Below are positions 1,243 through 28,733 of a stretch of DNA of 32,000 nt, one piece after another. Source of the stretch: Propionibacteriaceae bacterium. Its GTDB lineage: Bacteria > Actinomycetota > Actinomycetes > Propionibacteriales > Propionibacteriaceae. Positions within the stretch are counted from its first letter, which is position 1; the number at the start of each line of letters is the position of its first letter. The position numbers and the translations under genes are program-made. The DNA lies in NCBI GenBank assembly GCA_031256725.1, contig JAIRQE010000019.1, forward strand, positions 128,830 through 160,829, written 5' to 3'. The notes under the pieces were generated by a model. The model ran no database searches and was not told the origin of the DNA. It saw only the letters and a list, made by a program, of their open reading frames with translations.

Positions 1243-1258
1243 GGTCCAAGGCAGATTT

Positions 1259-2272: not shown

Positions 2273-2301
2273 CTTTCCTCCAGACCTAAAACCAGACAGG
2301 A

Positions 2302-3186: not shown

Positions 3187-3187
3187 A

Positions 3188-4192: not shown

Positions 4193-4199
4193 TGTTGGA

Positions 4200-5504: not shown

Positions 5505-5653
5505 TTCAGAGATTCCTCCTCTTTGAGCTTCCCGGATTTGTCCGGTTTGTAGGTCATGAGTGGACTAGTGGATTACTCCTTGAACTAGTCATGAAAGTTA
5601 GGTTACGACAGAAGAGCACCAGTTTTGGTCACAAAACGGTAACAAAGGAAATT

Positions 5654-5671
5654 CGTGAGAAAGTTTCACGC
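5654..5671. promoter_or_regulatory. Imperfect palindrome, candidate LacI-family operator (core GAAAGTTTC)
   Basis: CGTGAGAAAGTTTCACGC. It shares the 9-bp core GAAAGTTTC with the perfect palindrome at 5755-5769. 5 of 7 arm positions are symmetric around G5663. It lies in the divergent promoter region. Confidence 0.35.
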
Positions 5672-5754
5672 TCATTACATCTTCTGATGGCATTCATCAT
5701 CAGTATTAGTGCTGGTAACATACGATTCAGGGAGGGAGGTTAGGAAGTCATTGT

Positions 5755-5769
5755 TACGAAAGTTTCGTA
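5755..5769. promoter_or_regulatory. Perfect 7+1+7 palindrome TACGAAA-G-TTTCGTA, candidate LacI-family operator
   Basis: Checked by hand as reverse-complement symmetric. It ends 39 bp upstream of the GH3 ATG. A LacI regulator is encoded in the divergent operon. Confidence 0.45.
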
Positions 5770-5807
5770 CTTTGCACTTCAGGAAAGTACGTAAAGGAGC
5801 CACGAAT

Positions 5808-8483: not shown

Positions 8484-9734
8484 ATGAAGTATCTAAAACG
8501 CCTTGTTGACGAGGAACTTGTACAGGCTCTTCGCCGATCCGGAGCAGTCCTGATCGAAGGGGCTCGTGGATGTGGGAAAACTTCAACTGCGGAACGGGAG
8601 GCAGGCAGTGTTTTCCGCCTTGATACCGACCCGTTGACAGACCTCTACATGCAAACAGATCCTTCACAAATGCTTGAAGGGGCATCGCCTCGACTGCTTG
8701 ACGAGTGGCAAATACATCCAAAGATTTGGGATCTCGTGAGGCGGGCCGTTGATGATCGCCAGCGAAAGGGCCAATTCATCCTGACCGGTTCTGTAACCCC
8801 AGAGGATACGATTCGCCGCCATTCCGGCGCTGGACGATTCACAGTGATTCGAATGAGACCCTTGACTTTGTGGGAAGAAGGAAAAAGCGATGGGGAGGTG
8901 AGTCTAGGCCAGCTAAGAAAGACTTGTGAACTCCCAATGATGCAGTCACCACAACCAACTCTTAACGAATGGACCGAGATTCTCTGCCGAGGGGGATGGC
9001 CTGCCATGGTTGAAGCAGATCTGAGCGACTCCATGAGATACGTCAAAGATTATCTTGATCTGATTGTCAGCGTGGATGTGGGCATGACTTCAAGCAGAAA
9101 ACGTGATCCTATCAGAATGACGCGACTGATCGCCTCCCTTGCGCGAAACACCTCGTCTGAAGCTTCAATCAATACCTTGCGATCTGATGCAGGAGGACCT
9201 GATAATCCACTCGCCAGAGATACAACCTCGGATTACCTTGACATATTGGAAAGACTGATGGTGATTGAGCCATTACCTGCTTGGCAAACTGCTCTTCGTG
9301 GTTCAGCGACCCTCAGACAAGCCCCCAAATGGCATTTCGTTGACCCATCTTTGGCTGTAAGTGCGTTGAGAGCTAACCCAGCGAAAATCCTGAAAGAGCC
9401 GAAGACACTCGGAATGCTATTCGAATCCCTGGCAATACGGGACCTAAGAACATATGCAGAAGCGGATGGTGGAGTCACTTTTCACGCACGTGACTCGGTT
9501 GGGCGGGAGGCAGACCTGATCATTGAATACTCGGATGGGTGGATGGCCTGCGAAATCAAGTTGGGCATGGGACAAGCAGACCAAGCAGCTGAGTCCTTGA
9601 CTCGATTTTGCGCAGCAGTTGATACGCAAACTGTCGGTCCTTGTCTAGGAAAAATCGTCATCGTAGGGAATGGACCGGCATATCAAAGAAATGATGGGAT
9701 TATGGTTGTTCCTTTGGCCAGTCTCCGCCAATAG
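8484..9734 (+). CDS. AAA+ ATPase with C-terminal PD-(D/E)xK nuclease-like domain (AAA_14/DUF4143-type ATP-binding protein)
   Basis: Walker A is GARGCGKTS and Walker B is RLLDEWQ. The C-terminal motif GREADLIIEYSDGWMACEIKLG fits D...E-x-K of the restriction-endonuclease fold. Confidence 0.8.
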   Translation: MKYLKRLVDEELVQALRRSGAVLIEGARGCGKTSTAEREAGSVFRLDTDPLTDLYMQTDPSQMLEGASPRLLDEWQIHPKIWDLVRRAVDDRQRKGQFILTGSVTPEDTIRRHSGAGRFTVIRMRPLTLWEEGKSDGEVSLGQLRKTCELPMMQSPQPTLNEWTEILCRGGWPAMVEADLSDSMRYVKDYLDLIVSVDVGMTSSRKRDPIRMTRLIASLARNTSSEASINTLRSDAGGPDNPLARDTTSDYLDILERLMVIEPLPAWQTALRGSATLRQAPKWHFVDPSLAVSALRANPAKILKEPKTLGMLFESLAIRDLRTYAEADGGVTFHARDSVGREADLIIEYSDGWMACEIKLGMGQADQAAESLTRFCAAVDTQTVGPCLGKIVIVGNGPAYQRNDGIMVVPLASLRQ

Positions 9735-14861: not shown

Positions 14862-15183
14862 CCTCCTATCGTAGAGGTTCAGTTACTCAGAGCAATCCTC
14901 AGGTTTGTATCGGACTGTGAAAACATGTGCAAGAATCTTCGTTTTCAGCCAAGTCTAGAATCTTGTCACTGTTTTCCACGCTGTGGTGGTCGAATACGGG
15001 AAACAGGTACAACTCTCTCAACCGACCGAAATTCGAGGGGTCATCTGCGATCAGTTGTTGTACGTGGTACCACCCAACTCAAACCTAAGCTCCTAGTGGT
15101 GTGACGATGAATAAAAGACCACATACCCCCTGTTACTAGGGAAAATGGTGATTGTTGTTCTCCGCAAACATAATCGATTGCCC

Positions 15184-15248
15184 CTCACTAATTTCTAGTG
15201 AGTAGTACATCTCGGCATCATTAGTTCCTCATGATTCATAGGAATCAT
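15184..15248. promoter_or_regulatory. Two short palindromes in the leader of the cai/fix-like operon (candidate operators)
   Basis: CTCACTA-ATTTC-TAGTGAG at 15184-15202 and ATGATTC-ATAG-GAATCAT at 15231-15248. Both were checked by hand. They lie about 100-165 bp upstream of ATG 15350. Confidence 0.3.
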
Positions 15249-15349
15249 CACATCTGTGGGATGGGAGAGTGGCTCAGGCCCCGCATCATTGTGGAGAAAC
15301 CCTTCTGGACGACTAGCAATGGCGCCCTGAGAACCACGAAAGGTCCACA

Positions 15350-16747
15350 ATGACACAAGTAAAGGCCTCTTCGACAGAAGAGAAAACTTATAGTCAACTT
15401 AGCGCAGGTCGGCGCTGGTTCCTATTGATCCTTGCCAGCATTGGCAGTTCTATTATTTATGCCCCTGCCTATCTGAAGGCTGTTTTTTACGATCCATTGA
15501 TGCAAGCCCTTGGTGTCACAAACACCCAATTGGGTGCAGTCTTTGGCGCTTATGCCATTACTGCATTGGTCTGCTACCTGCCCTCTGGGATCATCGCTGA
15601 CAAGGTGCGTATGCGTACCCTCTCTAGCGTTGGATTCATTTCAACAGGCATCCTGACCGCAATCTATGCGATGCTTCCGAGCCTGACCGTTCTATATATT
15701 CTGTTCATCTCTATGGGCGTCACAACGATCCTCATTTGGTGGGGAGTTCGGTACAAGCTGGTTCGCTTGGTATCCACAGAAGAGCAGTACCCAAGGAGAA
15801 TAGGTATCTCCTATGGCTTCTATGGTGCAGCAGGTCTCATTATCGGTCTCATCTCAACTTGGGTCGTTACGATGGTTGGCGAAAACCTCAAACTTGGCGT
15901 CTCCATCTACCTGGGCTTCCTCGCTGTTGTGATCACGACGCTGGGTATTCTCTCCTGGATCTTCATTCCCAAGTTCGCTGGCGAAATCAAGACCGATGGT
16001 CAGGGCTTCTCGTTGACAGAGTTCACGAGTGCATTCCGTAACCCCGTGGTATGGATTGCAGCTATCTCACTGTTCTTCGTGTACTTCTACTACACAGGTG
16101 TGACCTACACCACACCGTACCTCACTGGTGTTCTGGGAGCCTCCCTGGTTCTCACCACCATCGTTGCCAACATTCGTACATATGGTATCACTTTGTTGTC
16201 GGGACCGATCTTCGGATACATCTCATCCAAGTTCAAGCCATCCATCACAATTGCTGTCGGCTCAGTATGCTTCGTTGTCGCTTTGGGAGCTATGATGCTC
16301 CTTCCTCCAGGCCCGGCCATGGTCATCGTCGCCTTGGTGCTCGTCGTCGTACTTGGATTCATCGCCAATGGCGCCTTCTCTGTCGTCTCAGCTCAGTTGA
16401 CTGAAGGCAAGGTACCGCTTCACTACTTCGGTGCAGCCACTGGCTTGCTCTCCATCATCGGCTTCCTTCCAGACACCTTCTCCTCGACATGGTTCGGCGC
16501 CATCATGGATGCCGGCATTGACGCATCAGGCAATGTTGGCGCTGGAGCCTACCAGACGATCTTCATGATCCTCATCGGTTCAGCAGTACTCGCGGCCGTC
16601 TTCTCCCTAGTCCTGTACCTCTACCTTCGCAACAAGAAGAACAAGGGTACGGACGAGGTCGCAGATGGTACCTCTGCTGCGGGCGAAGCAGAAGATTCTG
16701 TGAGCAACTCCTCTGACCTCGTTTACGACAACACTGACAACGACTAA
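15350..16747 (+). CDS. MFS transporter (about 12 TM) with an acidic, serine-rich C-terminal tail
   Basis: 465 aa with repeated hydrophobic helices and an MFS loop motif, GIIADKVRMRTL. RBS GAAAGG lies 6 nt upstream. First gene of the operon. Confidence 0.85.
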   Translation: MTQVKASSTEEKTYSQLSAGRRWFLLILASIGSSIIYAPAYLKAVFYDPLMQALGVTNTQLGAVFGAYAITALVCYLPSGIIADKVRMRTLSSVGFISTGILTAIYAMLPSLTVLYILFISMGVTTILIWWGVRYKLVRLVSTEEQYPRRIGISYGFYGAAGLIIGLISTWVVTMVGENLKLGVSIYLGFLAVVITTLGILSWIFIPKFAGEIKTDGQGFSLTEFTSAFRNPVVWIAAISLFFVYFYYTGVTYTTPYLTGVLGASLVLTTIVANIRTYGITLLSGPIFGYISSKFKPSITIAVGSVCFVVALGAMMLLPPGPAMVIVALVLVVVLGFIANGAFSVVSAQLTEGKVPLHYFGAATGLLSIIGFLPDTFSSTWFGAIMDAGIDASGNVGAGAYQTIFMILIGSAVLAAVFSLVLYLYLRNKKNKGTDEVADGTSAAGEAEDSVSNSSDLVYDNTDND

Positions 16748-16759
16748 GAGGTCCCCACG

Positions 16760-17740
16760 ATGACCGCATCCAATAAGCTCAATGTTCTTCAGTTGATCTC
16801 TGATGACATGCAAGCTGTAATCCAGAAGTCAGCAGAACTGGCACCCGATGCCTATGATGTGAATGCTGGTTTGGACTCCATGCGTACCGCCTATAGTAAA
16901 GAACGCGCGTACTGGAATGAAGGCGGACCTGAGGTCCCCTACACGGATGCGGTCATCACCACCTCTCAAGGCGATGTACCTGTTCGCTTCCACACCCCCA
17001 CTCACGAGGTCTCCCCTGCGATTATCTATATCCACGGTGGCGGCTTCATCCTCGGTGGCCTGGATACCCATGATCGCATCATGCGTATCCTGGCTGACCA
17101 AACTGGGGCAACCGTCGTGGGAGTCGACTATTCTCTCTCACCTGAAGCCAAGCATCCTCGCGCACTTCGTGAATGTGTCGAGCTTGCCCAGTACCTTCAC
17201 ACCCATGGGTCGAAGCACGGAATTGATGGGGACTCCATTAGTTTCGCTGGTGACTCTGGTGGAGCCTTCCTGAGCTTGGCTTCCTACCTTTACCTTAAAA
17301 ACGAGGTTGATGGTGCTCGATATATTCAAGCATTGATCCTCTATTACGGACTCTATGGTCTTCGCGACTCAGTTTCACGTCGCCTCATGGGTGGCACCTG
17401 GGACGGATTGACCGAAGAGGATCTGGCTTATTACATGGACTCCTATCTTGCCGATCCGGCTGATGCGCGTAGTCCCTATGTCGACTGCCTGAGCGCCGAC
17501 CTCTCTACAGTACCGCCCTGTTTCATTGCAGCGGCCGAGTACGATCCCCTGATCGATGATTCGGCAGCCCTTGCGGCAGTACTGAGCAAACACGGGCTAC
17601 ACCACCGCTATGTGGTGTATGCCGGTGTTTTGCACGCCTTCCTCCACAATTCCCGCCACCTCGATACCGCTATGGATGCACTCGTCGATGGGGCTCAGTT
17701 CTTCCGTGACCTCGTGAAGAACCCACAAACCTCCCTATAA
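16760..17740 (+). CDS. aes: Alpha/beta-hydrolase, hormone-sensitive-lipase family esterase (Aes/acetyl-esterase-like)
   Basis: Oxyanion motif IYIHGGGFILGGLDTHDRIMR, nucleophile elbow FAGDSGGA, acid DPLIDD and His in VLHAFLH. By eye it is collinear with E. coli Aes as I recall it. Confidence 0.8.
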   Translation: MTASNKLNVLQLISDDMQAVIQKSAELAPDAYDVNAGLDSMRTAYSKERAYWNEGGPEVPYTDAVITTSQGDVPVRFHTPTHEVSPAIIYIHGGGFILGGLDTHDRIMRILADQTGATVVGVDYSLSPEAKHPRALRECVELAQYLHTHGSKHGIDGDSISFAGDSGGAFLSLASYLYLKNEVDGARYIQALILYYGLYGLRDSVSRRLMGGTWDGLTEEDLAYYMDSYLADPADARSPYVDCLSADLSTVPPCFIAAAEYDPLIDDSAALAAVLSKHGLHHRYVVYAGVLHAFLHNSRHLDTAMDALVDGAQFFRDLVKNPQTSL

Positions 17741-17770
17741 ACCACCGAATAAGAAACAAGGAGAACCATA

Positions 17771-18907
17771 ATGGATTTCGCACTCAACGATGAACAACAG
17801 CTATTCGTCGAAAACTTCCGGGAACTCATGGAGCGAGAAAATTGGGAACCTTACTTCGCCGAATGCGACAAGACCCACACCTATCCCGAGCGTTGGGTGA
17901 AGGCCCTATGCGAATTAGGCTTCGATCAGATCATGCTCCCCGAAGAGCACGGCGGCCTCGACCTTGGCCTGGTCACACTGATGTCTGTGTACGAAGAACT
18001 CGGACGCCTCGGCGGCCCGACGTACATCCTCTACCAGCTCCCCTGCTTCGACACCATCCTGCGTGAAGGTACCCAAGAACAGATCAACAAGATCATGGCC
18101 TATGTTGGCACAGGCAAGCAGATCTGGAATAGCGCATGTACTGAGCCTGGTGCTGGCTCTGATGTGGGCAGCCTCCAAACCACCTACACCCGCAAGAATG
18201 GCAAGATCTACCTCAACGGACACAAGACCTTTATCACTTCTTCAGCGAAGGTGCCCTTCCTCGTCGTGATGGCTCGCGATTCCGAGAACTATGACACCTT
18301 CACAGAGTTCTTCTTGGATATGAGCCTCCCAGGCATCAAGATCGAGCCCCTGGAGAAACTGGGTCTGCGCATGGATTCCTGCTCCGATGTCTACCTCGAC
18401 AATGTTGAACTTGATGAGTCCGACATCTTTGGTACAGAGGGCAATGGCTTCAGGCGTGGTATCGGCGACTTCGATCTTGAGCGTTTCCTTGTCGGAGCCA
18501 GCGACTACAGCTCAGCTCTGTGCGCCTTTGAGGATGCAGCCAAGTACGCCAATGTACGCGTCCAGTTCGGTAAGACGATCGGTCGCTTCCAGTTGAACCA
18601 ACTGAAGTTTGCCGAGATGGCAATCAAGCTCAAGGCCATGAAGTACATGCTCTACGAAGCAGCATGGTCCTTCGATCAAGGCGAGATGACCTCTGCTCAG
18701 GCAGCGATGTGTAAGTACTACGGCGCTAATGCTTCCGCAGCAGTCGTTGACGCTGCCATGCAGGTGATGGCTGGTGTTGCTGTTGCTGGCGACCACAGGA
18801 TCCAGCGCATCTGGCGTGATCTTCGCGTTGATCGTGTCTCCGGTGGTACCGACGAGATGATGATCCTCACCCTCGCCAAGGGTGTCCTCAGAGAATACGC
18901 AGCCTAA
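17771..18907 (+). CDS. caiA: Acyl-CoA dehydrogenase family protein, CaiA-like (crotonobetainyl-CoA reductase type)
   Basis: [33 protein letters not shown]..., [35 protein letters not shown] and [23 protein letters not shown] parallel E. coli CaiA block for block (from memory). AAGGAG RBS. Confidence 0.85.
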
Positions 18908-18917
18908 GGAGTTCGCC

Positions 18918-20129
18918 ATGACACTGCCAACACAGAAACCGTCTTTTGGCCCCCTTGACGACGTACGCGTGGTCTATGCAGCCGTAGAACTGGCTGTACC
19001 CAGGGCTTGCTGCCTCATGGCTGAATGGGGTGCAGATGTTACCTGGATCGAGAACACTGGCGCGGGTGACACCATCCGCGACACCGCTTATATTAAGCAG
19101 GCTGAACGCCGTAACCAGCGTTCTGTTGCCCTCAACTATTTCAGCGAAGAGGGTACGGAAGTCCTGCTGAAGATGTTGGAGAATGCGGATGTTTTCATCG
19201 AATCCAGCAAGGGTGGTACCTTCGCAAAGCGCGGAATCACAGATGAGATGCTCTGGGAACACAACCCTAACTTGGTGATCGTCCACGTCTCCGGTTTCGG
19301 CCAAAAGGGTGTACAAGACATGGTCACTCGCGCGGCCTATGACCTCACGGTGATGGCCTATTCGGGGTACATGAGCCAAAACGGCACACCCGAGCAGCCC
19401 ATGAATCCTGGGCCCTACACCGGTGACTACATCAACTCTTTGATGATCCTGTCCTCGACCTTGGCTGCTCTGCATAAGGTGAAGATCACTGGTCAAGGCG
19501 AATCCATCGACCTTGCTATGTTCGAATCCCTGCTCGCCATCGGTCAGTACTATCTCGTTGACTATCTCAACGCGGGAATCATCTGGCCTCGCCCAGGACC
19601 ACGAAACCAGAACCTGTGCGCTATCGGTGAATACCGCTGCTCAGATGGATTCATTGGCCTGTGTGTCTATGGGGTCACCCAGAATAAGTACCTCCTGGAA
19701 GCTATTGGACTGGGAGACCTCTGGGGTAGCGATGACTACCCAGAAGACACCTCGGCCCTATGGCTATCCAGCCCAAAGGCCGAACTCATCGAAGCCAAAC
19801 TCGAAGAGTACCTCTCCACACGGACAGTCGCTGAGGTTGAGAAGGACTTTGCCGCTAACCGAATCGCAGCACAGAAGGTGATGGAGTTCCCTGATCTGGT
19901 TGCTGATGATCATATGAAGGCACGCGACGTCTGGATGGACTGGACCACCGCTGATGGCGAAGAGTTCCACGGCCTTGGTGTCTTCCCGAAGTTCGAGAAG
20001 AACCCTGGTGGAATGTGGCGCCCCATGCCGGCCCAAGGATACGACACCGAGGATGTTCTGCGTCGCATCGGTTACACAGATGAACAAATCGAGCATTTCG
20101 TCGCCACAGGCGTTGCTCTACAGGCATAA
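18918..20129 (+). CDS. caiB: Family III CoA-transferase, CaiB-like (carnitine/gamma-butyrobetainyl-CoA transferase type)
   Basis: FGPLDDVRVVYAAVELAVP...AEWGADVTWIEN, GESIDLAMFESLL and NPGGMWRPMPAQGYDTEDVL resemble CaiB. Start set to ATG 18918 (AAGGA RBS, 10 nt after the caiA stop) rather than ORF-track 18882. Confidence 0.85.
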   Translation: MTLPTQKPSFGPLDDVRVVYAAVELAVPRACCLMAEWGADVTWIENTGAGDTIRDTAYIKQAERRNQRSVALNYFSEEGTEVLLKMLENADVFIESSKGGTFAKRGITDEMLWEHNPNLVIVHVSGFGQKGVQDMVTRAAYDLTVMAYSGYMSQNGTPEQPMNPGPYTGDYINSLMILSSTLAALHKVKITGQGESIDLAMFESLLAIGQYYLVDYLNAGIIWPRPGPRNQNLCAIGEYRCSDGFIGLCVYGVTQNKYLLEAIGLGDLWGSDDYPEDTSALWLSSPKAELIEAKLEEYLSTRTVAEVEKDFAANRIAAQKVMEFPDLVADDHMKARDVWMDWTTADGEEFHGLGVFPKFEKNPGGMWRPMPAQGYDTEDVLRRIGYTDEQIEHFVATGVALQA

Positions 20130-20145
20130 GAAACAAGGAGAAAAA

Positions 20146-20892
20146 ATGAAGATAGTTGCCTCGTTCAAAGTCTCTCCCGAGACCCAAGATATTCAGACCC
20201 GTCCTGATCGCAGTCTCAACCTTGAACGCGCACAGTGGAAGGTTGGCACCTATGACCTCAATGCTATTGAGGCCGCACGCCAACTCGCTGATGAGGTCGG
20301 TGGTACGGTCGTCGGTCTTAGTGCTGGTGGATCAGCCCTCGAGAATGCAAAACTCACCAAGGATGCCCTCTCTCGTGGACTCGACGAATTAGTCACCGTG
20401 GTTGATGAAAACCTCGTGGGTTCTGAGAGTTATCAAACTGCATCAGTCCTGGCCGAGTCCCTCACTGAAATCGGTGACGTGGATCTGGTTCTCGTAGGTG
20501 CTGGTTCCTCAGATGAGTACACCCAGCAGGTTGGAAACCACCTGGGTCAGATCCTGGGATGGCCCACACTCAATGCCATCGAGACTATCGAAGCTGAGGG
20601 TGACCATCTCAAGGTCGAAAGAGTCCTCGAAGATGGCGTCCAAGTCATTGAGGTCCAGCTCCCCGCTGTACTCTCGCTGACCTCTGGCGCAAACACTCCA
20701 AGGATCGCTGGAATGAAAGACATCCTGGCGGCAGGCAAGAAGCCGGTCACCTCGGTTGCTGCTGGTGTACTCCCCTCACCAACAGCCACCCCAGTCTCCC
20801 AGCTTGCTCCCGAGCAAGTTGACCGTCGCCAGATCATCCTCGAAGGCGTGGACGCAGCTGCGGAACTCGCCATCCACCTCAAAGCACTCTAA
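20146..20892 (+). CDS. fixA: Electron-transfer flavoprotein beta subunit, FixA-like
   Basis: MKIVASFKVSPETQDI...YDLNAIEAARQLADE...LPAVLSLTSGANTPRIAGMKDILAAGKKP matches the FixA/EtfB pattern. Start trimmed to ATG 20146 (AAGGAG RBS). Confidence 0.88.
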   Translation: MKIVASFKVSPETQDIQTRPDRSLNLERAQWKVGTYDLNAIEAARQLADEVGGTVVGLSAGGSALENAKLTKDALSRGLDELVTVVDENLVGSESYQTASVLAESLTEIGDVDLVLVGAGSSDEYTQQVGNHLGQILGWPTLNAIETIEAEGDHLKVERVLEDGVQVIEVQLPAVLSLTSGANTPRIAGMKDILAAGKKPVTSVAAGVLPSPTATPVSQLAPEQVDRRQIILEGVDAAAELAIHLKAL

Positions 20893-20901
20893 GGAAGAAC
20901 C

Positions 20902-21795
20902 ATGACAAAGATATGGGTTATTGCACATGATGACACTGTTGCCGCGGATCTTGTCCGCAGCGCGCGAGGATTGGGCTCCTATGTGGGCACAGTCTGCATA
21001 GGCGGTCACGCGGTACCAGGTGCCGATCTGACACTGACAGCACCACAAATACCCGAGACTCTCATTGAAGGCTACTCTTCAGCCATTGCTGAGGTTGTCA
21101 AGGATGGCGACCTGGTTATCTTCAGTACAGACACACAGTCCCGCCTTCTTGCTGGGCTGGTCGCCTCCACACTGAAGACCTCTGTACGCAACATCACCTC
21201 GATCTCGGCTGAGGGTGATACCTTCACCATCACGAGGCCTTTGTACGGTGGTTTGGCTGTGGTAACGGAAACCCTGGGTAGTGGGGCATCTGTACTCGTT
21301 GTCGGACCTGGTGCTCTACCTGAGTATGAAGGCGACCTTCCTTCTGGAGAGGTCAAGGACCTTGAAGGTACGCCGTCCACGCCCGGATTGAAAGTTGTTG
21401 AAACCCGAACCAAGCAGGTCCAGGCAGTCAACCTTGCTGCCGCAAAGCGTGTGATTGGTGTGGGCCGCGGATTCGCCCAGGAAGCAGACCTTGAGATGGC
21501 TCGCGAACTCGCAGCCAAACTCGGTGGTGAACTCGCCTGCAGCCGTCCTATGGCTGAGGGTGTGAACTGGATGCCAGTCGAATGCTACCTCGGAGTCTCC
21601 GGGGCAACCATTAGGCCCGACCTCTACCTCGCCATCGGTATCTCTGGTCAGATCCAGCACATGGTTGGCGTCAACAGATCCAAGGTGATCGTCGCCATCA
21701 ACAAGGACAAGAACGCACCGATCTTCACCCATGCCGATTACGGCGTTGTGGGGGATCTCTACGATGTTCTTCCTGCTCTGATCCAGGCACTATAA
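20902..21795 (+). CDS. fixB: Electron-transfer flavoprotein alpha subunit, FixB-like
   Basis: C-terminal FAD-binding block ELACSRPMAEGVNWMPVECYLGVSGATIRPDLYLAIGISGQIQHMVGVNRSKVIVAINKDKNAPIFTHADYGVVGDL. Confidence 0.9.
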   Translation: MTKIWVIAHDDTVAADLVRSARGLGSYVGTVCIGGHAVPGADLTLTAPQIPETLIEGYSSAIAEVVKDGDLVIFSTDTQSRLLAGLVASTLKTSVRNITSISAEGDTFTITRPLYGGLAVVTETLGSGASVLVVGPGALPEYEGDLPSGEVKDLEGTPSTPGLKVVETRTKQVQAVNLAAAKRVIGVGRGFAQEADLEMARELAAKLGGELACSRPMAEGVNWMPVECYLGVSGATIRPDLYLAIGISGQIQHMVGVNRSKVIVAINKDKNAPIFTHADYGVVGDLYDVLPALIQAL

Positions 21796-21809
21796 AGGAA
21801 GTCATAACC

Positions 21810-23399
21810 ATGGTGGACATTGTTGGTACGACCACATTCCCACAGATGTGGGATGCGGCTGTACGCTGTGCAGGAGACCGAGTCTTCTTGGCCTTCCTGC
21901 ACAGTGATGGTACTCGCCTCGAGTTCACTTATCGAGAATTCGACAAGGTTGTATCACGAACCGTTTCTCATCTGTCCCATCTAGGGATAGGTCACGGCTC
22001 GATGGTCGCTATGCAACTATGCAACTCCCCATGGTTCATATCCTGCCTTATCGGCATCACAAAGCTCGGAGCCATCGCGGTACCAGTAGGCCCAGGTGCT
22101 ACTGGTACCGAGTTGGCCGGGATCTATGCCACCTGTGATGCCCAATGGGCCATCGTCGAGTCCATTCACGTGGACACCCACAAAGAATTACGCTTTCAAG
22201 GATTGATTCGCCACGGAATCATCTGCGTGGATGATCTCGTATCTAACGTGTCAGGGGACGCATATTGTGACACCTCAATTCCTGTAGTGATTGGGGTGTC
22301 ACAATATGCGTCCCCTGACGCTCCGCCCCCTGACACTAGACCAAACACAGGACCAACCAGTGATGACATTGCGGAGGTGATGTTCACCTCGGGCACAACC
22401 GCAGCACCTAAGGGTGTGCTGGTTACCCATGCCAACTTGGTCTACTCAGCTCATGTTGCCACCTGGCAGGCATCGCTGCGACCAGATGATCGTATCTTCA
22501 CGACCATGCCAGCCTGCCACTCCAACTTCCAACTGGTGGCATTAACGGGCGCGATTCTTTCAGGAGCCCGACTGGTCCTTTCCGAGAAGTACTCTGCTAG
22601 CCGCTTCTGGTCCCAGATACGCACCGAAAAGGCAACAGTGATCCAACTGACTGCCATGATGGCTCGTACCCTCCTTCTTCAACCATCGAGTGAAGACGAC
22701 TCCACCCACAATGTGCGGGAGACCTTGTACTTCATGCCTTTGCCTGATGCCGACAAACTGGAGTTTGAGAAGCGCTTCGGCGTGAGGTTCATGAACTCCT
22801 ATGGGTCGACCGAATCCATCTGCTGGGCGCTCACAGACCCACCTGTCGGGGAACGCAAGTGGCCTTCGGTGGGCCGTCCTGCTCTCGGGTACGAGGTCTC
22901 TATTGTGAGCCCTGAGGGTGACCATCTTCCAGCGGGGAGTCTTGGAGAGATCTGGGTGAAAGGTGTCCCCGGTCGTACCCTCATGAAAGGCTACCTGGGC
23001 AACGACCAGGCTACACATGCAGCCTTGACTGAGGACGGCTGGCTGCGTACCTCTGACACCGGATATTACGACGAACAAGGCTGGTTCTATTTCGTGGATC
23101 GGGCCCGCAACCTCATCAAACGTGGAGGCGAGAATATCTCAGCAACAGAGATTGAGACCCTACTCAACTCCCATCCCCTCATCAAAGAGGCCGCCGTGAT
23201 CGGTGTACCCGATCCTGTACGAGACCAAGCAGTGAAAGCCTTTATTCAGCCTGAGTCTGATGCTGAACTGGATACAGCGGATGTCGCATCATTTTGTTCC
23301 ATGCATCTCGCCAGTTTCAAAGTCCCCCAAATAATCGAGTTCGTGGAGGACTTTCCACGAACCGCCTCAATGAAAATCGAGAAGAGATCCCTGAGCTAA
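21810..23399 (+). CDS. caiC: AMP-forming acyl-CoA synthetase/ligase, CaiC-like
   Basis: Adenylate-forming motifs FTSGTTAAPKGV, SYGSTE, TSDTGYYDEQGWFYFVDRARNLIKRGGENIS and PRTASMKIEKRSL. The N-terminus MVDIVGTTTFPQMWD parallels E. coli CaiC MDIIGGQHLRQMWD (from memory). Confidence 0.85.
   Translation: MVDIVGTTTFPQMWDAAVRCAGDRVFLAFLHSDGTRLEFTYREFDKVVSRTVSHLSHLGIGHGSMVAMQLCNSPWFISCLIGITKLGAIAVPVGPGATGTELAGIYATCDAQWAIVESIHVDTHKELRFQGLIRHGIICVDDLVSNVSGDAYCDTSIPVVIGVSQYASPDAPPPDTRPNTGPTSDDIAEVMFTSGTTAAPKGVLVTHANLVYSAHVATWQASLRPDDRIFTTMPACHSNFQLVALTGAILSGARLVLSEKYSASRFWSQIRTEKATVIQLTAMMARTLLLQPSSEDDSTHNVRETLYFMPLPDADKLEFEKRFGVRFMNSYGSTESICWALTDPPVGERKWPSVGRPALGYEVSIVSPEGDHLPAGSLGEIWVKGVPGRTLMKGYLGNDQATHAALTEDGWLRTSDTGYYDEQGWFYFVDRARNLIKRGGENISATEIETLLNSHPLIKEAAVIGVPDPVRDQAVKAFIQPESDAELDTADVASFCSMHLASFKVPQIIEFVEDFPRTASMKIEKRSLS
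22250..22319. repeat. 70-nt near-perfect palindrome (25-bp perfect arms, extendable to about 30 bp) embedded in frame in the caiC-like CDS
   Basis: Left arm GTCAGGGGACGCATATTGTGACACC (22250-22274) is the exact reverse complement of 22295-22319. The inner CAAT/ATTG pairs extend the stem after one T/G position, leaving an 8-10 nt loop. The encoded peptide is SGDAYCDTSIPVVIGVSQYASPD. Confidence 0.9.
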
Positions 23400-23417
23400 C
23401 AAGGAAAGGAATATGCA

Positions 23418-24290
23418 ATGGGTAATATCAATACAGAGATGGTCGGACAGACCTTTGGACCCTTCATTAGGGAGTACACCTTCCGCGATCTGGAGTTGTT
23501 CGCACTCGGGTGCGGCGCTGGGATCGACGGCAAACAGGACCTCATCTATATCAATGAACACGATGAGCGTGATCCGAAGCTTCAGGTACTCCCCATGTAT
23601 GCCGCGATGCTCATCGTTGATTCTGCGGTGACACGCACCATCGACTATGGCTACAACTATGCTGGCTCCCTGCACTGGGGTTTCGACCTGCGTATCCATC
23701 AGCCCATCACGAAGATGGCCGACCGTCTTGAGACGAAGGTACGCCTTGAGGGGCTGTACGACCGTGGCGAAGGCCGTGGACTGCTTGCCCAGCACATTGG
23801 TGACACCTTCGATTCTGAAGGCAACCTGTTGTGTACTAACGAATCATGGGACTGCCTGATCTATGACGGCGGTTGGGGTGGACCCACACCACCTAAGGAT
23901 GTTGTGGACATGCCTGATCGCGATCCAGATCACATCGTCACCGAGACGATCCCCTTCAACCAGGCTCTGATCTATCGCCTCTCGGGCGATTACCACCCCC
24001 AGCACATCGACTGGGACTATGCAGCCCAGAATAATGAGCCTCGTCCGATCCTTCATGCGATCAGCTATGCCGGTGTTGTGATGCGTCACGCCATCTCGAC
24101 CTTCATCCCTGATCAGCCGGAGCGCTTGACGAGGTTCAAGACCCGAATCACCTCACCAGTACACCCGGGTGCCACCCTGGCCACCCACCTGTGGAAGGTC
24201 AGTGACACTGAGGCGCGTTTCATGCTTGTCGAAGCTAATGATCCTCAAGCAAAACCGCACCTCAACTGGGGAATCATCGAGTGGAGCTAA
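23418..24290 (+). CDS. MaoC-like double-hotdog (R)-hydratase/dehydratase
   Basis: 290 aa, about twice a single hotdog domain. A hydratase-2-like motif, YRLSGDYHPQHID (canonical SGDxNPxH), keeps the Asp and His, with Asn replaced by His. RBS AAGGAAAGGA. Confidence 0.75.
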   Translation: MGNINTEMVGQTFGPFIREYTFRDLELFALGCGAGIDGKQDLIYINEHDERDPKLQVLPMYAAMLIVDSAVTRTIDYGYNYAGSLHWGFDLRIHQPITKMADRLETKVRLEGLYDRGEGRGLLAQHIGDTFDSEGNLLCTNESWDCLIYDGGWGGPTPPKDVVDMPDRDPDHIVTETIPFNQALIYRLSGDYHPQHIDWDYAAQNNEPRPILHAISYAGVVMRHAISTFIPDQPERLTRFKTRITSPVHPGATLATHLWKVSDTEARFMLVEANDPQAKPHLNWGIIEWS

Positions 24291-24294
24291 CCCC

Positions 24295-25623
24295 ATGAGT
24301 ACCACCAAGAGCCACGTCATTGATGACGCCGTCATGAACCGTTTCCTGGTTAAGGTCACGGTCTTCTCCTCAGGAGGTTCCTTCCTGGACGGGTACGTAC
24401 TGTCGATCATTGGCGTGGCCTTGGTTGGTCTCACCACATCCCTAAATCTGACCACCTCAGATGCTGCCTTCATTGGCGCAGCCTCACTGGCCGGCATCTT
24501 CTTTGGAGCAATTGTTGGTGGACGTTTGACAGATGCCTTCGGGCGCCGGCTAATGTTCCTTCTCGATGTGTCGCTCATCGGAATCGTCTCAATCGCCTGC
24601 ATCTTCGTAGAGGCACCCTGGCAGTTGATCGTCTTAAGATTCCTGATTGGGTTCTTTATCGGCGCCGATTACCCTATTGCCACCTCGCTGATTGTTGAAT
24701 TCGTACCACGCAAACATCGCGCCATCGGAATGGGAATCGTCTCAGCGTCATGGTACCTCGGTGCAACAGTTGCTGCCTTTGTTGGGTACCTCCTTTACCA
24801 CGTCCCCAACGGATGGCAGTGGATGTTCGCATCCTCCGTCATCCCCTGTATCGCCCTGCTCATTGGTCGACACGATATTCCCGAATCACCACGCTGGCTT
24901 GCACAACGCGGACGTGTAGAGAAGGCGCGCGCGGTCATGAAGAAGGTCTACGGTCAGGAGGTGGATCTTGAAGACGAGATCCCCACCACCAACCTCGGCT
25001 TTAAGCAGGTTTTCACACATGGGTACCTTGGGCGCATCATCTTCTTGGGGATCCTCATTTTGTGTCAGGTGGTGCCGATGTACGCGATGTACACTTTCGG
25101 GCCACGGATCATGGCATCCTTTGGTCTCGCTGAAGGCTCATTATCCATCCTCGGCGAAACAGTGGTCTCCCTCTTCTTCCTCATTGGCTCCATCCCAGCG
25201 ATGTTCTGGTTAAACTCCCTGGGACGACGCCCCCTACTCATCGGCTCTCTTGGACTCATGGCTGTGGGTCTGTTGATCCCCGGTATCGCTCCAGGGGCTC
25301 CGATCATCGTGATCATCATTGCTTTTGGACTCTATGCCTTCTTCTCTGGTGGACCTGGGATCCTCCAGTGGTTGTACCCCAATGAGCTCTTCCCAACTGA
25401 GGCCCGCGCAACTGCGGTTGGTGTGGCCATCGCGATCAGCCGTATAGGTGTGGTCGCCTCAACGTACGGATTACCTCTCTTCCTCGAATCCTATGGAATC
25501 GGCCCAACGATGTTGATTGGTGCTGGGCTTCTCCTGATTGCCCTCGTCATGTCGATATTCATGGCTCCCGAAACCCGAGGGATGACGCTATCCGAAGCAA
25601 GTTCACTTCATACGAAAGGATGA
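24295..25623 (+). CDS. yaaU: MFS transporter, sugar-porter/metabolite:H+ symporter type, YaaU-like
   Basis: Motifs GRLTDAFGRRLMF, IPESPRWLAQRGRVEKA, GADYPIATS and PETRGMTL. By eye it is collinear with E. coli YaaU as I recall it. Start trimmed to ATG 24295, 4 nt after the MaoC stop. Confidence 0.82.
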   Translation: MSTTKSHVIDDAVMNRFLVKVTVFSSGGSFLDGYVLSIIGVALVGLTTSLNLTTSDAAFIGAASLAGIFFGAIVGGRLTDAFGRRLMFLLDVSLIGIVSIACIFVEAPWQLIVLRFLIGFFIGADYPIATSLIVEFVPRKHRAIGMGIVSASWYLGATVAAFVGYLLYHVPNGWQWMFASSVIPCIALLIGRHDIPESPRWLAQRGRVEKARAVMKKVYGQEVDLEDEIPTTNLGFKQVFTHGYLGRIIFLGILILCQVVPMYAMYTFGPRIMASFGLAEGSLSILGETVVSLFFLIGSIPAMFWLNSLGRRPLLIGSLGLMAVGLLIPGIAPGAPIIVIIIAFGLYAFFSGGPGILQWLYPNELFPTEARATAVGVAIAISRIGVVASTYGLPLFLESYGIGPTMLIGAGLLLIALVMSIFMAPETRGMTLSEASSLHTKG

Positions 25624-25628
25624 TAGTA

Positions 25629-26915
25629 ATGGCTGACTTTGATGCCATTGTGGTGGGATCGGGCTGTGCGGGCCCGGTAGCTGCCCATGAATTAGCCACA
25701 CGAGGCAAGAGTGTCTTGGTGATTGAGCGAGGAAACTTCGCTGGTGCCAAGAATGTCTCAGGTGGGCGTTTGTATACCCATGCTCTGCGAGAGGTCTTCC
25801 CGAACTTCCGCGATGATGCCCCCCTGGAGCGTCGGGTGGTACGTGAAAGAATCTCGATGCTGGAACCCGAAGCGGGACTGACCATCGAGTTCTCTGATGA
25901 ACAGATGAGGGATGAATCCCAGGATTCCTACACAGTACTTCGGGCACAATTCGATCCGTGGCTAGTTTCACAAGCCGAAGCTGCTGGAGCAGAGTACATC
26001 CACGGAATCGCGGTCGAATCCCTGATCAAGGATGGAAACCGGGTCACTGGTGTCAGTGCTGGTGGGGATGAGATCAGCGCAGATGTGGTGATCCTCTGCG
26101 ATGGGGTCAACTCTCTTCTCGCCGAACAAGCAGTGGGTACTCCTCGCCCATCTCGCTCCTCAGTTGCTGTGGGAATCAAGCAGGTCATCGAATTGGATGA
26201 GCATGTCATTAATGAACGCTTCACCTGTTCATCCGATGAGGGTGCAGCCTGGCTGTTCATGGGTGATGCCACCCATGGTCACGTTGGCGGTGGCTTCCTG
26301 TACACCAATAAGAATTCGATTTCTTTGGGTCTGGTTGTCACTGTGGCAGACATGGTTGAAGCCGACACAACCATCGCTCAACTCTTGGAGGATTTCCGCC
26401 AGCATCCAGTGATTGCCCCTGTCATCGCAGGTGGTGCAGTGGTCGAACATTCTGGACATCTTGTTGCCGAGGGTGGGTACAACGCTTTGCCTACCCTGAT
26501 TGGCGATGGTGTCATGCTTGCTGGTGAATCGGCCATGATGTGTCTCAACGCCGGATATACCGTCCGTGGAATGGATCTTGCCATCGCCGCAGGGATGCAC
26601 GCCGGTCGTAGTGCAGCCACAGCCCTTGATAATGGGGACACCTCATCAAAGGGGCTTGGTTCCTATGTGAAAGCCCTCGAAGACTCCTTCGTCATCAAGG
26701 ATATGAAGACCCTGCGTCGCTTCCCGGATTTCATGGAACACACCCCCCGGATGTTCTCCACCTATCCTGAGTTGGCTTGTTCACTGGCCCGCCAGATGTT
26801 CCTCGTTGATGGTACCCCCATGAAGCCGGTACGCAAGAAGGCCTGGCCCCTACTGAAAGACGTCGGCCTATTCAACCTTCTCAAAGATGCTCGTAAAGGA
26901 GTGAAAGCGTTATGA
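25629..26915 (+). CDS. fixC: FAD-dependent ETF-quinone-type oxidoreductase, FixC-like
   Basis: FDAIVVGSGCAGPVAAHELATRGKSVLVIERGNFAGAKNVSGGRLYTH (dinucleotide fold) and GGFLYTNKNSISLGLV match FixC. AGGA lies 8 nt before ATG 25629. The alternative ATG 25620 overlaps the MFS stop (ATGA). Confidence 0.88.
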   Translation: MADFDAIVVGSGCAGPVAAHELATRGKSVLVIERGNFAGAKNVSGGRLYTHALREVFPNFRDDAPLERRVVRERISMLEPEAGLTIEFSDEQMRDESQDSYTVLRAQFDPWLVSQAEAAGAEYIHGIAVESLIKDGNRVTGVSAGGDEISADVVILCDGVNSLLAEQAVGTPRPSRSSVAVGIKQVIELDEHVINERFTCSSDEGAAWLFMGDATHGHVGGGFLYTNKNSISLGLVVTVADMVEADTTIAQLLEDFRQHPVIAPVIAGGAVVEHSGHLVAEGGYNALPTLIGDGVMLAGESAMMCLNAGYTVRGMDLAIAAGMHAGRSAATALDNGDTSSKGLGSYVKALEDSFVIKDMKTLRRFPDFMEHTPRMFSTYPELACSLARQMFLVDGTPMKPVRKKAWPLLKDVGLFNLLKDARKGVKAL

Positions 26916-27211
26916 GTACACTCAAACCAATTACCGTGAATGTTGATGCCTACCTTGGCCTAAACAAGTACGAAGTAGATGAAGGAAACCCACATATCGA
27001 GGTTGCTCCTGAGCCTGAAACAGAACTCTTCAAGGAACTAGTACGTATATGCCCAGCTGGGTTGTACAAGATGGATGGGGATCAACCCATGTCCGTTGAC
27101 TTCGCTGGATGCCTAGAATGCGGCACATGTCGCATAGTCGGCGCCGGTGCAATCATCGCCTCATGGCGATATCCGTCAGCCACTATGGGCATAGAGTACA
27201 GGTACGGCTAA
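26912..27211 (+). CDS. fixX: Ferredoxin-like protein FixX
   Basis: CPAGLYK...DFAGCLECGTCRIVG...YPSATMGIEYRYG parallels E. coli FixX. ATGA overlap with fixC. Confidence 0.9.
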   Translation: MSTLKPITVNVDAYLGLNKYEVDEGNPHIEVAPEPETELFKELVRICPAGLYKMDGDQPMSVDFAGCLECGTCRIVGAGAIIASWRYPSATMGIEYRYG

Positions 27212-27305
27212 AACCTTGGGAATACTCTCAGCTCCATCCTTGTTCCATCATTATCAATACAGATTACAATTGAAATAGGTATTCAAAATCTCGGAGGGGA
27301 TGGAG

Positions 27306-28733
27306 ATGACTACAGCACAGGGACGATCTGTCTTGGATAGGCTCGTCGACGATTCACGGATGAAATACCTCGGGTTAGTCTTAGTACTCACCTGGCATTA
27401 CACCCTGTGGTTCGTTCCGACGGCCTTTCCAGCAACCTTCCTCTTGGATGACCGAATCACCTTCGGATGGCTCACCGCGCTGACGTGTACTGTAATCACC
27501 ACGGTCGCCCTTGCCCTCGCTCTTGGGAGAACACGGCATCTCCCCCAGTCCGGATGGCTCCTTTGGACAGTTTCTGGTCTCGGGTGTGTCGCAACCTTGA
27601 CACTCACTCTTGGATGCGGCACAACCCGAGGCCCACTCATTTGCTATCTAGCAAGTGCCCTTATTGGGATCTGCGCGGGATTTCTATGGGTCATGTGGGG
27701 TGAAAGGTATGCCTGTCAACGAGCCCAATTCACCATGGGTCGTCTGGCACCCGTCTACGGGATCGTCCTCCTTGCAGGGTTGATAGCGGTCTACCTCCTT
27801 CCAGGTATCCTTGCCCCGATTCTTGTCTGTCTCATGCCTGTCACCTCTGGGCTGCTTCTCAACCTCAGTTGGCGCAAGTCACAATCGGTGAGCTTTCCTC
27901 CGATCCTCACCAGGAACACCACCCGTCATGCGACCCTCAGCATCGTCATAGTGTGCCTCATCTCTTTCATCGTGGCCTATGTCAGCTACTTCGTGGTGGC
28001 GATCGTACCCTGGGAGGATCTGTGGGGTGTCGAACGAAGCTTCACCTTCGGAGTCGGTATCGGGGCAATACTCATCCTGGTTATTGGCCTTGCCCATGCC
28101 CGACTACAGGGGAAAACCACGATCTTCAAACTCTTCCCCTGGATCCTACTATTCTCCCTTGTGGCATGCCTGTTATGCCTATCATCCTATCCGGAAGATT
28201 TCACAGGATTCCTTCTTGCCCTCACCGCATCCTCGGTTCTCGAAGTCCTAGTGATCATGTATATGGCACGTCTGACTCTCAGCGGCTATACCCCTTCCGC
28301 AACAGCCTTCGGCATGAGTGCAGCAGCCATCCGATTCGGGATACTTCTCGGCAATGGTACCGCTCTCATCTATGAACGCATTCCAGGATTCCAAGACCTG
28401 TGGACCCAACCAACCCTGCTGGTTTTCGTTGTTGTCCTGGCTGGCCTTCTCATTCCTTTGGTACGACAGGAGTACTCCATTAACGACCTCACTGTTGCCC
28501 CTGTGGATGCCTCACAGTGGAGTACCACCCTTGAAGGAATCAGCAAACAATTCCATCTGTCTGCACGCGAGACTGAGATTCTTGAACTCTTGGGCCGCGG
28601 ATACACCGCCACTGCCGTAGCCGAAAAACTCATCATCTCCCCCCACACAGTCAACACCCATGTTCAACACATCTACGAAAAGATGGGAATCCATCGCCGT
28701 TCTGAACTCTTGGACTATCTCAATAAAGGTTAG
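27306..28733 (+). CDS. Membrane-embedded LuxR-family transcriptional regulator (about 12 TM N-terminal domain plus C-terminal LuxR HTH)
   Basis: About 400 aa of successive hydrophobic helices, then LSARETEILELLGRGYTATAVAEKLIISPHTVNTHVQHIYEKMGIHRRSELLDYL (GerE/LuxR HTH). GGAGG lies 8 nt before ATG 27306. The alternative ATG is at 27300. Confidence 0.85.
   Translation: MTTAQGRSVLDRLVDDSRMKYLGLVLVLTWHYTLWFVPTAFPATFLLDDRITFGWLTALTCTVITTVALALALGRTRHLPQSGWLLWTVSGLGCVATLTLTLGCGTTRGPLICYLASALIGICAGFLWVMWGERYACQRAQFTMGRLAPVYGIVLLAGLIAVYLLPGILAPILVCLMPVTSGLLLNLSWRKSQSVSFPPILTRNTTRHATLSIVIVCLISFIVAYVSYFVVAIVPWEDLWGVERSFTFGVGIGAILILVIGLAHARLQGKTTIFKLFPWILLFSLVACLLCLSSYPEDFTGFLLALTASSVLEVLVIMYMARLTLSGYTPSATAFGMSAAAIRFGILLGNGTALIYERIPGFQDLWTQPTLLVFVVVLAGLLIPLVRQEYSINDLTVAPVDASQWSTTLEGISKQFHLSARETEILELLGRGYTATAVAEKLIISPHTVNTHVQHIYEKMGIHRRSELLDYLNKG

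Follow-up and report, generated by a model that had tools for sequence, protein, structure and literature searches.

Microbial gamma-butyrobetaine, formed from carnitine, is an intermediate en route to trimethylamine and trimethylamine N-oxide (TMAO), and surveys of its formation usually count the enterobacterial caiTABCDE genes. In Escherichia coli the carnitine genes are arranged as two divergent operons, caiTABCDE and fixABCX, the latter followed by yaaU, and the system includes the BCCT antiporter CaiT, the crotonase-fold enzyme CaiD, CaiE and the activator CaiF. Here we describe a differently organized cai/fix cluster from a Propionibacteriaceae bacterium. It lies in a stretch of 32,000 nucleotides (contig JAIRQE010000019.1, positions 128,830 to 160,829 of the forward strand, assembly GCA_031256725.1), which we call the window and to which all coordinates refer unless another locus is named. 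In this cluster eleven genes at 15350-27211 (+) encode an MFS transporter (MFS1), an Aes-like esterase, CaiA, CaiB, FixA- and FixB-like proteins, a CaiC-like ligase, a MaoC hydratase, a YaaU-type MFS transporter and FixC- and FixX-like proteins, in that order, and are followed by a gene for a membrane-bound LuxR-type regulator.

A cluster of this kind has been described. Roder et al. (2024, Genome Biol; PMC11007987) reported a syntenic cluster in Propionibacterium freudenreichii that extends from an MFS gene to fixX, with an alpha/beta-hydrolase, caiABC, an enoyl-CoA hydratase, a second MFS and fixABCX, and remarked that caiD and caiT are absent from it. In their genome-wide association, strains with an intact cluster depleted octanoyl- (C8) and decanoylcarnitine (C10) and accumulated carnitine and putative gamma-butyrobetaine, while many other strains carried decayed clusters (PMC11007987). 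Earlier, McCubbin et al. (2020; PMC7650540) had inferred carnitine reduction in propionibacteria from the presence of caiABC and fixABCX. These two propionibacterial papers were the only relevant ones that we found among open-access papers and preprints, a literature in which we came upon no biochemical study of any component, no link between a hot-dog hydratase and carnitine, and nothing on yaaU in connection with carnitine or on cai genes in Actinomycetaceae. The original prediction for this DNA, which was made from the sequence alone, was largely right in its functional reading and went too far in taking the architecture to be undescribed, since such a cluster is already in the literature, although only as an association. 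The window holds a new, intact and reordered example of the cluster type reported in 2024 and not a new system.

The clusters of the window and of P. freudenreichii share a parts list that includes the MaoC-type hydratase and the YaaU-type MFS, and both are without caiT and caiD. They differ in gene order, which in P. freudenreichii is caiABC-MaoC-MFS-fixABCX (type II, in the terms used below) and in the window is type I. The P. freudenreichii cluster also has an extra gene of the metallo-beta-lactamase (MBL) fold before fixA, its Fix proteins are only 35-41% identical to those of the window, and there is no LuxR regulator within 10 kb of it. One decayed P. freudenreichii locus that we retrieved is of type II; its esterase, caiB and yaaU genes are split, and between its MaoC and that of the window the identity is 77%. 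With respect to E. coli, the window's CaiA, CaiB, CaiC, Fix proteins and YaaU are homologous over their full lengths, and the chemistry and physiological role are presumably shared; the window differs in that it adds MFS1, the Aes-type esterase, MaoC and the membrane LuxR regulator. The closest layout outside the Actinomycetota is that of Sporomusa rhizae (L087) and of a Peptococcaceae metagenome-assembled genome (L094), in which a single string has the order caiT-A-B-fixABCX-caiC-MaoC-yaaU, so that the fix genes follow caiB and are themselves followed by caiC, MaoC and yaaU, as in the window. The proteins of these clusters are 72% (CaiA), 59% (CaiB) and 55% (FixA) identical to those of the window. 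In contrast to the window, they have a BCCT caiT gene instead of MFS1 and the esterase, keep fixABCX together and are accompanied by a sigma-54 activator rather than by a LuxR protein.

Gene content and spacing of the cluster

The prediction that cai- and fix-type functions for CoA-dependent reduction are fused into one gene string is supported by gene content, order and spacing. The layout of open reading frames (ORFs) bears out eleven co-directional genes separated by no more than 30 bp or overlapping at their ends; the successive gaps are 12, 30, 10, 16, 9, 14, 18, 4, -4 and -4 bp, and 88 bp then precede the LuxR gene. Domain searches returned the gene order and domain assignments that had been predicted. 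A purine-rich ribosome-binding site lies upstream of most of the cluster genes, and for the first seven genes the calls on an identical public contig agree with the ORF layout. The starts of the longest ORFs are over-extended for CaiB (18882), FixA (19954) and YaaU (24169), and starts that fit the homologues lie at 18918, 20146 and 24295, respectively. The absence of caiT, caiD, caiE and caiF was also seen correctly, in that the corresponding E. coli proteins match nothing in the window (best tblastn E value, 0.14).

CaiA and CaiB belong to the carnitine-specific families

CaiA (17771-18907, +; 378 aa, acyl-CoA dehydrogenase family) scores 698 bits against NF002885, the crotonobetainyl-CoA dehydrogenase equivalog, for which the cut-off is 540, and 434 bits against the YdiO model of NCBIfam, for which it is 537. 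Its full-length identity to CaiA of E. coli is 69%, compared with 43% for the paralogue YdiO. In neighbour-joining trees, which are approximate and midpoint-rooted here and below, the window CaiA falls inside the CaiA clade with YdiO as the outgroup. CaiB (18918-20129, +; 403 aa, family III CoA-transferase) reaches 666 bits against NF002914, the L-carnitine CoA-transferase equivalog (cut-off, 413). It shares 45% identity with CaiB of E. coli, the catalytic Asp169 of which aligns with D170. A placement of the dehydrogenase and the CoA-transferase outside the CaiA and CaiB clades had been named as an outcome that would count against a carnitine-type operon; both proteins instead exceed their equivalog cut-offs and CaiA lies within its clade. 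The CaiC-like acyl-CoA ligase (21810-23399, +; 529 aa, with the domain of an AMP-ligase) has the crotonobetaine/carnitine-CoA ligase as its best NCBIfam match by a wide margin, at 584 bits, which is below equivalog level (cut-off, 651); its identity is 39% to CaiC of E. coli and 27% to FadK.

All four subunits of a FixABCX/YdiQRST set are present with the expected domains: the FixA-like small (beta) subunit (20146-20892, +; 248 aa, Pfam ETF) and the FixB-like large (alpha) subunit (20902-21795, +; 297 aa, Pfam ETF and ETF_alpha) of an electron-transfer flavoprotein (ETF), the FixC-like flavoprotein of the ETF-quinone oxidoreductase type (25620-26915, +; 431 aa) and the ferredoxin-like FixX (26912-27211, +; 99 aa, 53% identical to E. 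coli FixX). They are about equidistant from the Fix and Ydi proteins of E. coli, and none reaches equivalog level with the FixA, FixB, FixC and FixX models. FixA shares 43% identity with its E. coli namesake and 45% with YdiQ, scores 208 bits against the FixA model (cut-off, 219) and lies under both equivalog cut-offs; FixB is 37% identical to FixB and 44% to YdiR, with 201 bits against a FixB cut-off of 549; and FixX scores 113 against a cut-off of 166 in the NCBIfam FixX model. FixC, which is 49% identical to E. coli FixC and 50% to YdiS, is the only one to pass a subfamily cut-off, that of the YdiS-type subfamily NF007450 (498 bits; cut-off, 466), and it fails that of the FixC subfamily (480 against 610). 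On the strength of its family membership and of the observed linkage of its gene to fixAB, we propose that CaiA is a crotonobetainyl-CoA reductase that takes electrons from FixAB.

A MaoC hydratase family found in cai clusters

In the position between caiC and yaaU the window encodes a MaoC hydratase (23418-24290, +; 290 aa, Pfam MFE-2_hydrat-2_N and MaoC_dehydratas). It matches hydratase 2 of human MFE-2 (1s9c) with an E value of 2e-33, and its AlphaFold model (pLDDT 92.4) has TM-scores of 0.85-0.90 to 1s9c and to the Mycobacterium tuberculosis enzyme 3khp, so that the predicted structure is a double hot-dog fold. MaoC may do the work of CaiD but is not a member of the crotonase-fold CaiD family. 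The identity to these two hydratases is 27-31%, and the catalytic Asp and His residues are shared with them. The motif RLSGDYHPQHIDW (YRLSGDYHPQH) differs from the hydratase-2 reference motif [YF]-x(1,2)-[LVIG]-[STGC]-G-D-x-N-P-[LIV]-H in that it has His where Asn is expected and Gln in the [LIV] position.

This change characterizes a distinct family. Where hydratase-2 enzymes have GDxNP[LIV]H, its members have GD[YFW]H[PQ]QH, and the change is invariant in 80 actinobacterial homologues, the window protein and four sequences from other phyla, with slight variation elsewhere (GDWHQQH in the Coriobacteriales). In the alignment of 85 sequences, 95 of the 290 positions are invariant, and among the related loci MaoC is the most highly conserved protein of the cluster (67-87% identity, compared with 58-84% for CaiA and values down to 31% for the Fix proteins). 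In a library clustered at 50% identity one representative (581 bits) stands for the whole family; after it comes a full-length relative with 43% identity (205 bits), and no other exceeds 37%. An identical MaoC protein is on record from a Propionibacteriaceae metagenome-assembled genome.

Members with 57-63% identity occur in other phyla, and a cai cluster was present in each of the nine MaoC contexts that we opened beyond the set of 80 actinobacterial loci described below. In Enterobacillus tribolii, fixXCBA is divergent from caiT-A-B-C-MaoC, so that MaoC follows caiC at the place where E. coli has caiD and caiE, and no homologue of caiD or caiE was found at that locus. The order is caiT-A-B-C-MaoC-fixAB...fixCX in Desulfobaculum; Shewanella fidelis and Ferrimonas have caiT-A-B-C-caiD-MaoC-caiE, then an Abhydrolase_3 esterase; Endozoicomonas has two tandem MaoC genes, one without the catalytic Asp; the Coriobacteriales genome has the window's order and lacks the esterase; and a Curtobacterium plasmid carries a remnant of the cluster. 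In the four MaoC loci in which CaiT was checked it is 41-79% identical to E. coli CaiT. The MaoC family adjoins a BCCT caiT gene in other phyla and is therefore tied to quaternary-amine substrates of the carnitine type. Within 10 kb of the cluster no actinobacterial locus has a homologue of CaiT, CaiD, CaiE or CaiF. We propose that the window MaoC is a carnitinyl-CoA dehydratase that stands in for CaiD.

Some of these contexts deserve separate mention. The tandem Endozoicomonas paralogues (L093:8104-9852) are 54% identical to each other, and the first, which has GIYHHLH for GDYHPQH, may be a non-catalytic partner subunit. The loci of S. fidelis (L086:9123-12697) and Ferrimonas kyonanensis (L092:8106-11855) are E. 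coli-like cai operons with both CaiD and MaoC; the Shewanella CaiD is 86% identical to that of E. coli and the Shewanella esterase 33% identical to that of the window. CaiD and MaoC may therefore not be equivalent. A co-variation of CaiE with CaiD was suggested by Enterobacillus, which has neither, and by Shewanella and Ferrimonas, which have both; we abandoned the idea, since in Endozoicomonas a CaiE-like gene occurs and CaiD does not. The public name carried by the window gene and by many of its relatives, 3-alpha,7-alpha,12-alpha-trihydroxy-5-beta-cholest-24-enoyl-CoA hydratase, is a bile-acid label inherited from MFE-2, and the cai context makes it very unlikely.

Transporters, esterase and regulator

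MFS1 (15350-16747, +; 465 aa, Pfam MFS_1, E value 1e-26) is encoded by the first gene of the cluster in 61 related loci. A search for a solved structural relative of MFS1 found none. It is 54% identical to the orthologous MFS of P. freudenreichii, and in that species the MFS and hydrolase genes are the two that were associated with acylcarnitine depletion (PMC11007987). We regard MFS1 as a putative importer of acylcarnitine or carnitine. The esterase (16760-17740, +; 326 aa, Abhydrolase_3) belongs to the acetyl esterase family, with 432 bits against the NCBIfam equivalog (cut-off, 389) and 47% identity to E. coli Aes, and matches the PDB entries 3ga7 and 4krx with E values near 1e-90. It has the oxyanion motif HGGG at residues 92-95 and the nucleophile motif GDSGG, of the GxSxG type, at 164-168, and is a putative O-acylcarnitine hydrolase.

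The YaaU-type MFS (24295-25623, +; 442 aa, Pfam Sugar_tr and MFS_1), the ATG of which lies 4 bp past the MaoC stop codon, is 49% identical to E. coli YaaU over 437 aa. In E. coli, yaaU follows fixX at a distance of 58 bp and in the same orientation (L002:4200-5877), and homologues are also linked to cai/fix genes in Enterobacillus, Sporomusa and the Peptococcaceae. This pattern suggests that YaaU has a transport role in carnitine metabolism. The original prediction had counted four non-orthologous replacements. The analysis supports the view that an MFS, MaoC and a membrane LuxR protein occupy the place of the missing genes and that an esterase has been added. YaaU, however, must be removed from the list; because E. 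coli yaaU directly follows fixX, the window protein is a retained partner of the fix genes and not a substitute for CaiT.

The LuxR protein (27300-28733, +; 477 aa) has a GerE helix-turn-helix at residues 420-473 and about nine hydrophobic segments across its N-terminal 390 residues. Homologues that are 40-63% identical flank 14 type I loci, most of them divergent and upstream, and a 43% identical homologue flanks the Coriobacteriales locus. This recurrent neighbourhood is consistent with the notion that the membrane LuxR protein is the probable sensor and activator of the operon.

Two gene orders in the Actinomycetota

A scan for the MaoC family, with one genome per species, identified 80 loci, all in or near the Actinomycetota, onto which the window proteins were mapped. 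All ten core genes are present in 54 of them. The recurrence of the gene set in 80 loci of other species excludes chance as an explanation for the grouping. The gene set occurs in two orders. In type I, the order of the window (about 17 loci), fixAB lies between caiB and caiC and fixCX follows yaaU; the hosts are Propionibacteriaceae, Propionicimonas, Luteococcus, Cellulomonas and Actinotalea. This order is also that of the Coriobacteriales genome without an esterase. In type II (50 loci) the order is MFS1, esterase, caiA, caiB, caiC, MaoC, yaaU (missing in some loci) and fixABCX, and the hosts include Schaalia, Pauljensenia, Arcanobacterium, Trueperella, Winkia, Varibaculum, Sanguibacter and Oerskovia. 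A gene for an MBL-fold (Lactamase_B) protein, 43-59% identical across loci, lies between yaaU (or MaoC) and fixA in 46 type II loci (for example L091:12451-13095 and L052:12282-12878) and is missing from the window and from type I clusters; its product may be a thioesterase.

It had been suggested that the proteins look enterobacterial and that the block was acquired horizontally and then remodelled. A recent acquisition of this sort finds no support. The window has about 54% G+C with no compositional break at the cluster, and G+C and the G+C at third codon positions (GC3) fall in overlapping ranges for the genes of the cluster (0.49-0.67) and of the flanks (0.46-0.62). The block is bordered by no gene for a tRNA or a mobile element. 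About 80 actinobacterial species carry the cluster, and the nearest relatives beyond the window's own taxonomic order are the Coriobacteriales genome and the Negativicutes, not E. coli. The flanking genes of the window adjoin the cluster in none of the 80 related loci, which are too distant for flank synteny to be informative as to an insertion or deletion of the block.

In the neighbour-joining trees the window CaiA and Fix proteins group with those of Firmicutes and Proteobacteria, including E. coli, and the type II versions branch outside, whereas CaiB, CaiC and MaoC of both types form one actinobacterial group. In the esterase tree the two types are not cleanly separated and E. coli Aes is nested among them. 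Pairwise identities show the same division: the window CaiA is 69% identical to that of E. coli, 72% to that of Sporomusa and 58-66% to type II proteins, and the corresponding figures are 49%, 49% and 38-46% for FixC and 45%, 59% and 60-66% for CaiB. As judged from these sequence comparisons, the type I order looks like a mosaic and not like something that enterobacteria donated recently. Direct evidence for the movement of cluster parts on mobile DNA comes from Curtobacterium sp. MCLR17_007, in which an 83-kb plasmid (CP126272.1; L089:5712-11687) carries MFS1, part of caiB, caiC, MaoC and the gene for the MBL-fold protein. At 90% identity the MaoC of P. freudenreichii (WP_044635905.1) falls into one protein cluster with a protein of Schaalia odontolytica, which hints at recent exchange between dairy propionibacteria and Actinomycetaceae.

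A proposed pathway and its alternatives

We consider it probable that the block is an intact single-operon anaerobic carnitine pathway leading from acylcarnitine to gamma-butyrobetaine. The substrates, the direction, the roles of the transporters and the regulation that we infer are the following. MFS1 would import O-acyl-L-carnitine or carnitine, and the Aes-family esterase would free L-carnitine from acylcarnitines. CaiC would form the first CoA thioester with ATP, after which CaiB would shuttle CoA from gamma-butyrobetainyl-CoA to incoming carnitine. MaoC would dehydrate carnitinyl-CoA to crotonobetainyl-CoA, the step of CaiD in E. coli, and CaiA would reduce the latter to gamma-butyrobetainyl-CoA with electrons that pass from the quinol pool through FixCX to the FixAB ETF. 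Gamma-butyrobetaine would then leave the cell, perhaps via YaaU, and the membrane LuxR protein would sense the substrate and turn the operon on. The net effect would be a sink for electrons when the cell grows anaerobically. In E. coli the homologous system makes carnitine available as an electron acceptor in the absence of oxygen, and anaerobic growth on glycerol is supported by carnitine only in the presence of caiC (PMC10694575).

Several observations weigh against this reading. CaiC, FixA, FixB and FixX all score under their equivalog cut-offs. The P. freudenreichii evidence is an association, in which gamma-butyrobetaine was assigned without a standard, and it comes from a cluster with another gene order and with fix gene products that are 35-41% identical (PMC11007987). 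Two further points concern MaoC, namely the retention of both CaiD and MaoC in Shewanella and Ferrimonas and the stereochemistry of the dehydration. Canonical hydratase-2 enzymes yield D-(3R)-hydroxyacyl-CoA. Carnitine in its L-(R) form is arranged in space like an L-(3S)-hydroxy acid, since CH2N takes priority over CH2COOH, and it is for this reason that a crotonase serves the carnitinyl-CoA step in E. coli. A canonical MaoC enzyme would therefore be expected to act on D-carnitinyl-CoA.

The MaoC family may have changed its facial selectivity, which the altered motif would fit without proving, or it may instead act on D-carnitinyl-CoA. In the latter case MaoC would interconvert crotonobetainyl-CoA and D-carnitinyl-CoA in a racemising or D-carnitine branch, and either the L-specific step would fall to a crotonase from another locus or crotonobetaine would be the only compound that the cluster reduces. 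The hydratase-2 fold with its catalytic Asp and His, the established D-specificity of such enzymes and the presence of CaiD beside MaoC in Shewanella and Ferrimonas, which would be sensible if the two had opposite stereospecificities, keep this possibility alive. We nevertheless judge it unlikely. More than 80 clusters have MaoC but lack a CaiD gene within 10 kb, no other gene of the cluster is as well conserved as MaoC, the motif GDxH[PQ]QH allows for changed substrate handling, and D-carnitine is not a common natural substrate. The P. freudenreichii data moreover suggest that gamma-butyrobetaine is made from the L-carnitine of milk (PMC11007987). It is on account of this phenotype and of the many MaoC-only clusters that we favour a change in facial selectivity.

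Two other explanations were considered, which differ from a reductive carnitine pathway in the substrate or in the direction. The operon might act on another ester-derived enoyl or 3-hydroxy acid, such as a hydroxycinnamate, in a reduction like that of caffeate respiration, a parallel that the original prediction had drawn. Acetobacterium woodii carABCDE indeed comprises a CoA-transferase, a ligase, a reductase of the acyl-CoA dehydrogenase type and an ETF, and the window has an esterase and MFS transporters in place of a BCCT carrier, a CaiC under its equivalog cut-off and many relatives from termite-gut and soil metagenomes. However, the car system has no hydratase, FixCX or esterase; caffeate can be reduced without a hydratase, yet no protein of the cluster is better conserved than MaoC, and the same MaoC family adjoins the BCCT gene caiT in other phyla. 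CaiA and CaiB are of the carnitine type by equivalog score, CaiA being 69% identical to its E. coli counterpart, and the P. freudenreichii cluster is associated with carnitine metabolites (PMC11007987), so that this alternative is disfavoured and appears quite improbable to us. Even less probable is an oxidative direction, in which gamma-butyrobetaine would be activated, CaiA would dehydrogenate it, MaoC would hydrate the product to carnitinyl-CoA and electrons would pass from CaiA by way of FixAB and FixCX to the quinone pool, in the manner of aerobic butyrobetaine catabolism. ETF and ETF-quinone oxidoreductase are the standard exit from acyl-CoA dehydrogenases and the reactions are reversible in principle, but the cluster has no further gene for carnitine breakdown, its hosts are mostly fermentative or facultative anaerobes, and an acylcarnitine esterase supplies carnitine and not gamma-butyrobetaine. 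Gamma-butyrobetaine also appears to rise rather than fall in yoghurts made with P. freudenreichii (PMC11007987), and the homologous E. coli system is reductive (PMC10694575).

Implications for carnitine metabolism

The remaining interest of the locus is general and lies in the cross-phylum MaoC family and its stereochemistry, in what Aes and YaaU may do and in how widely the cluster is carried among actinobacteria. A version of the pathway without caiD and caiT is common in the Actinomycetota, with related ones in Negativicutes, Desulfovibrionales and marine Gammaproteobacteria. Estimates that are based on genes and keyed on caiT or caiD would overlook these clusters. Three poorly understood proteins, the MaoC family, YaaU and Aes, gain a role that can be tested.

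More tentatively, and at a likelihood that we would place somewhat below even, the MaoC proteins of cai clusters could be hot-dog-fold carnitinyl-CoA dehydratases that replace CaiD across phyla, with Aes-family esterases as acylcarnitine hydrolases and Actinomycetaceae as producers of gamma-butyrobetaine. If so, either MaoC acts on L-carnitinyl-CoA and breaks the usual D-specificity of hydratase-2 enzymes, or the clusters gain an interconversion of D- and L-carnitine. Acylcarnitine hydrolysis would extend to E. coli Aes, and the host-associated Actinomycetaceae Schaalia, Trueperella, Arcanobacterium, Winkia and Varibaculum would be unrecognised gamma-butyrobetaine producers.

The leader region and neighbouring genes

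The 488 bp between MFS1 and the divergent murI gene (14862-15349) form the sole long non-coding gap by the cluster and are presumed to contain the promoter and operator of the operon. An imperfect inverted repeat at 14963-15012, with 15-nt arms that are 80% complementary and 20 nt apart, could be an operator. A promoter scan found no match to the sigma-70 consensus in this leader, and there was no Rfam match at the gathering score anywhere in the window, the leader included. The counts from promoter and terminator scans were not above those for shuffled sequence, and no internal terminator stands out.

The core genes that had been named as flanks, murI, rph, rdgB, thyA, folA and dinB on one side and feoA, feoB and feoC on the other, were all recovered. 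About 14 kb from the cluster, an ORF at 529-1290 (-) with HTH_38, HTH_23 and HTH_Tnp_4 domains may be the N-terminal part of an IS30-type transposase. A gene of lower G+C for an AAA_14/DUF4143 ATPase (8484-9734, +; GC3 0.46), between a GH3 glycosidase gene and dinB, looks like an insertion unrelated to the cluster. Also unrelated to it is a sugar-uptake set at 1259-8108, which encodes a LacI-type regulator, two ABC permeases, a solute-binding protein and a GH3 enzyme of the beta-glucosidase type.

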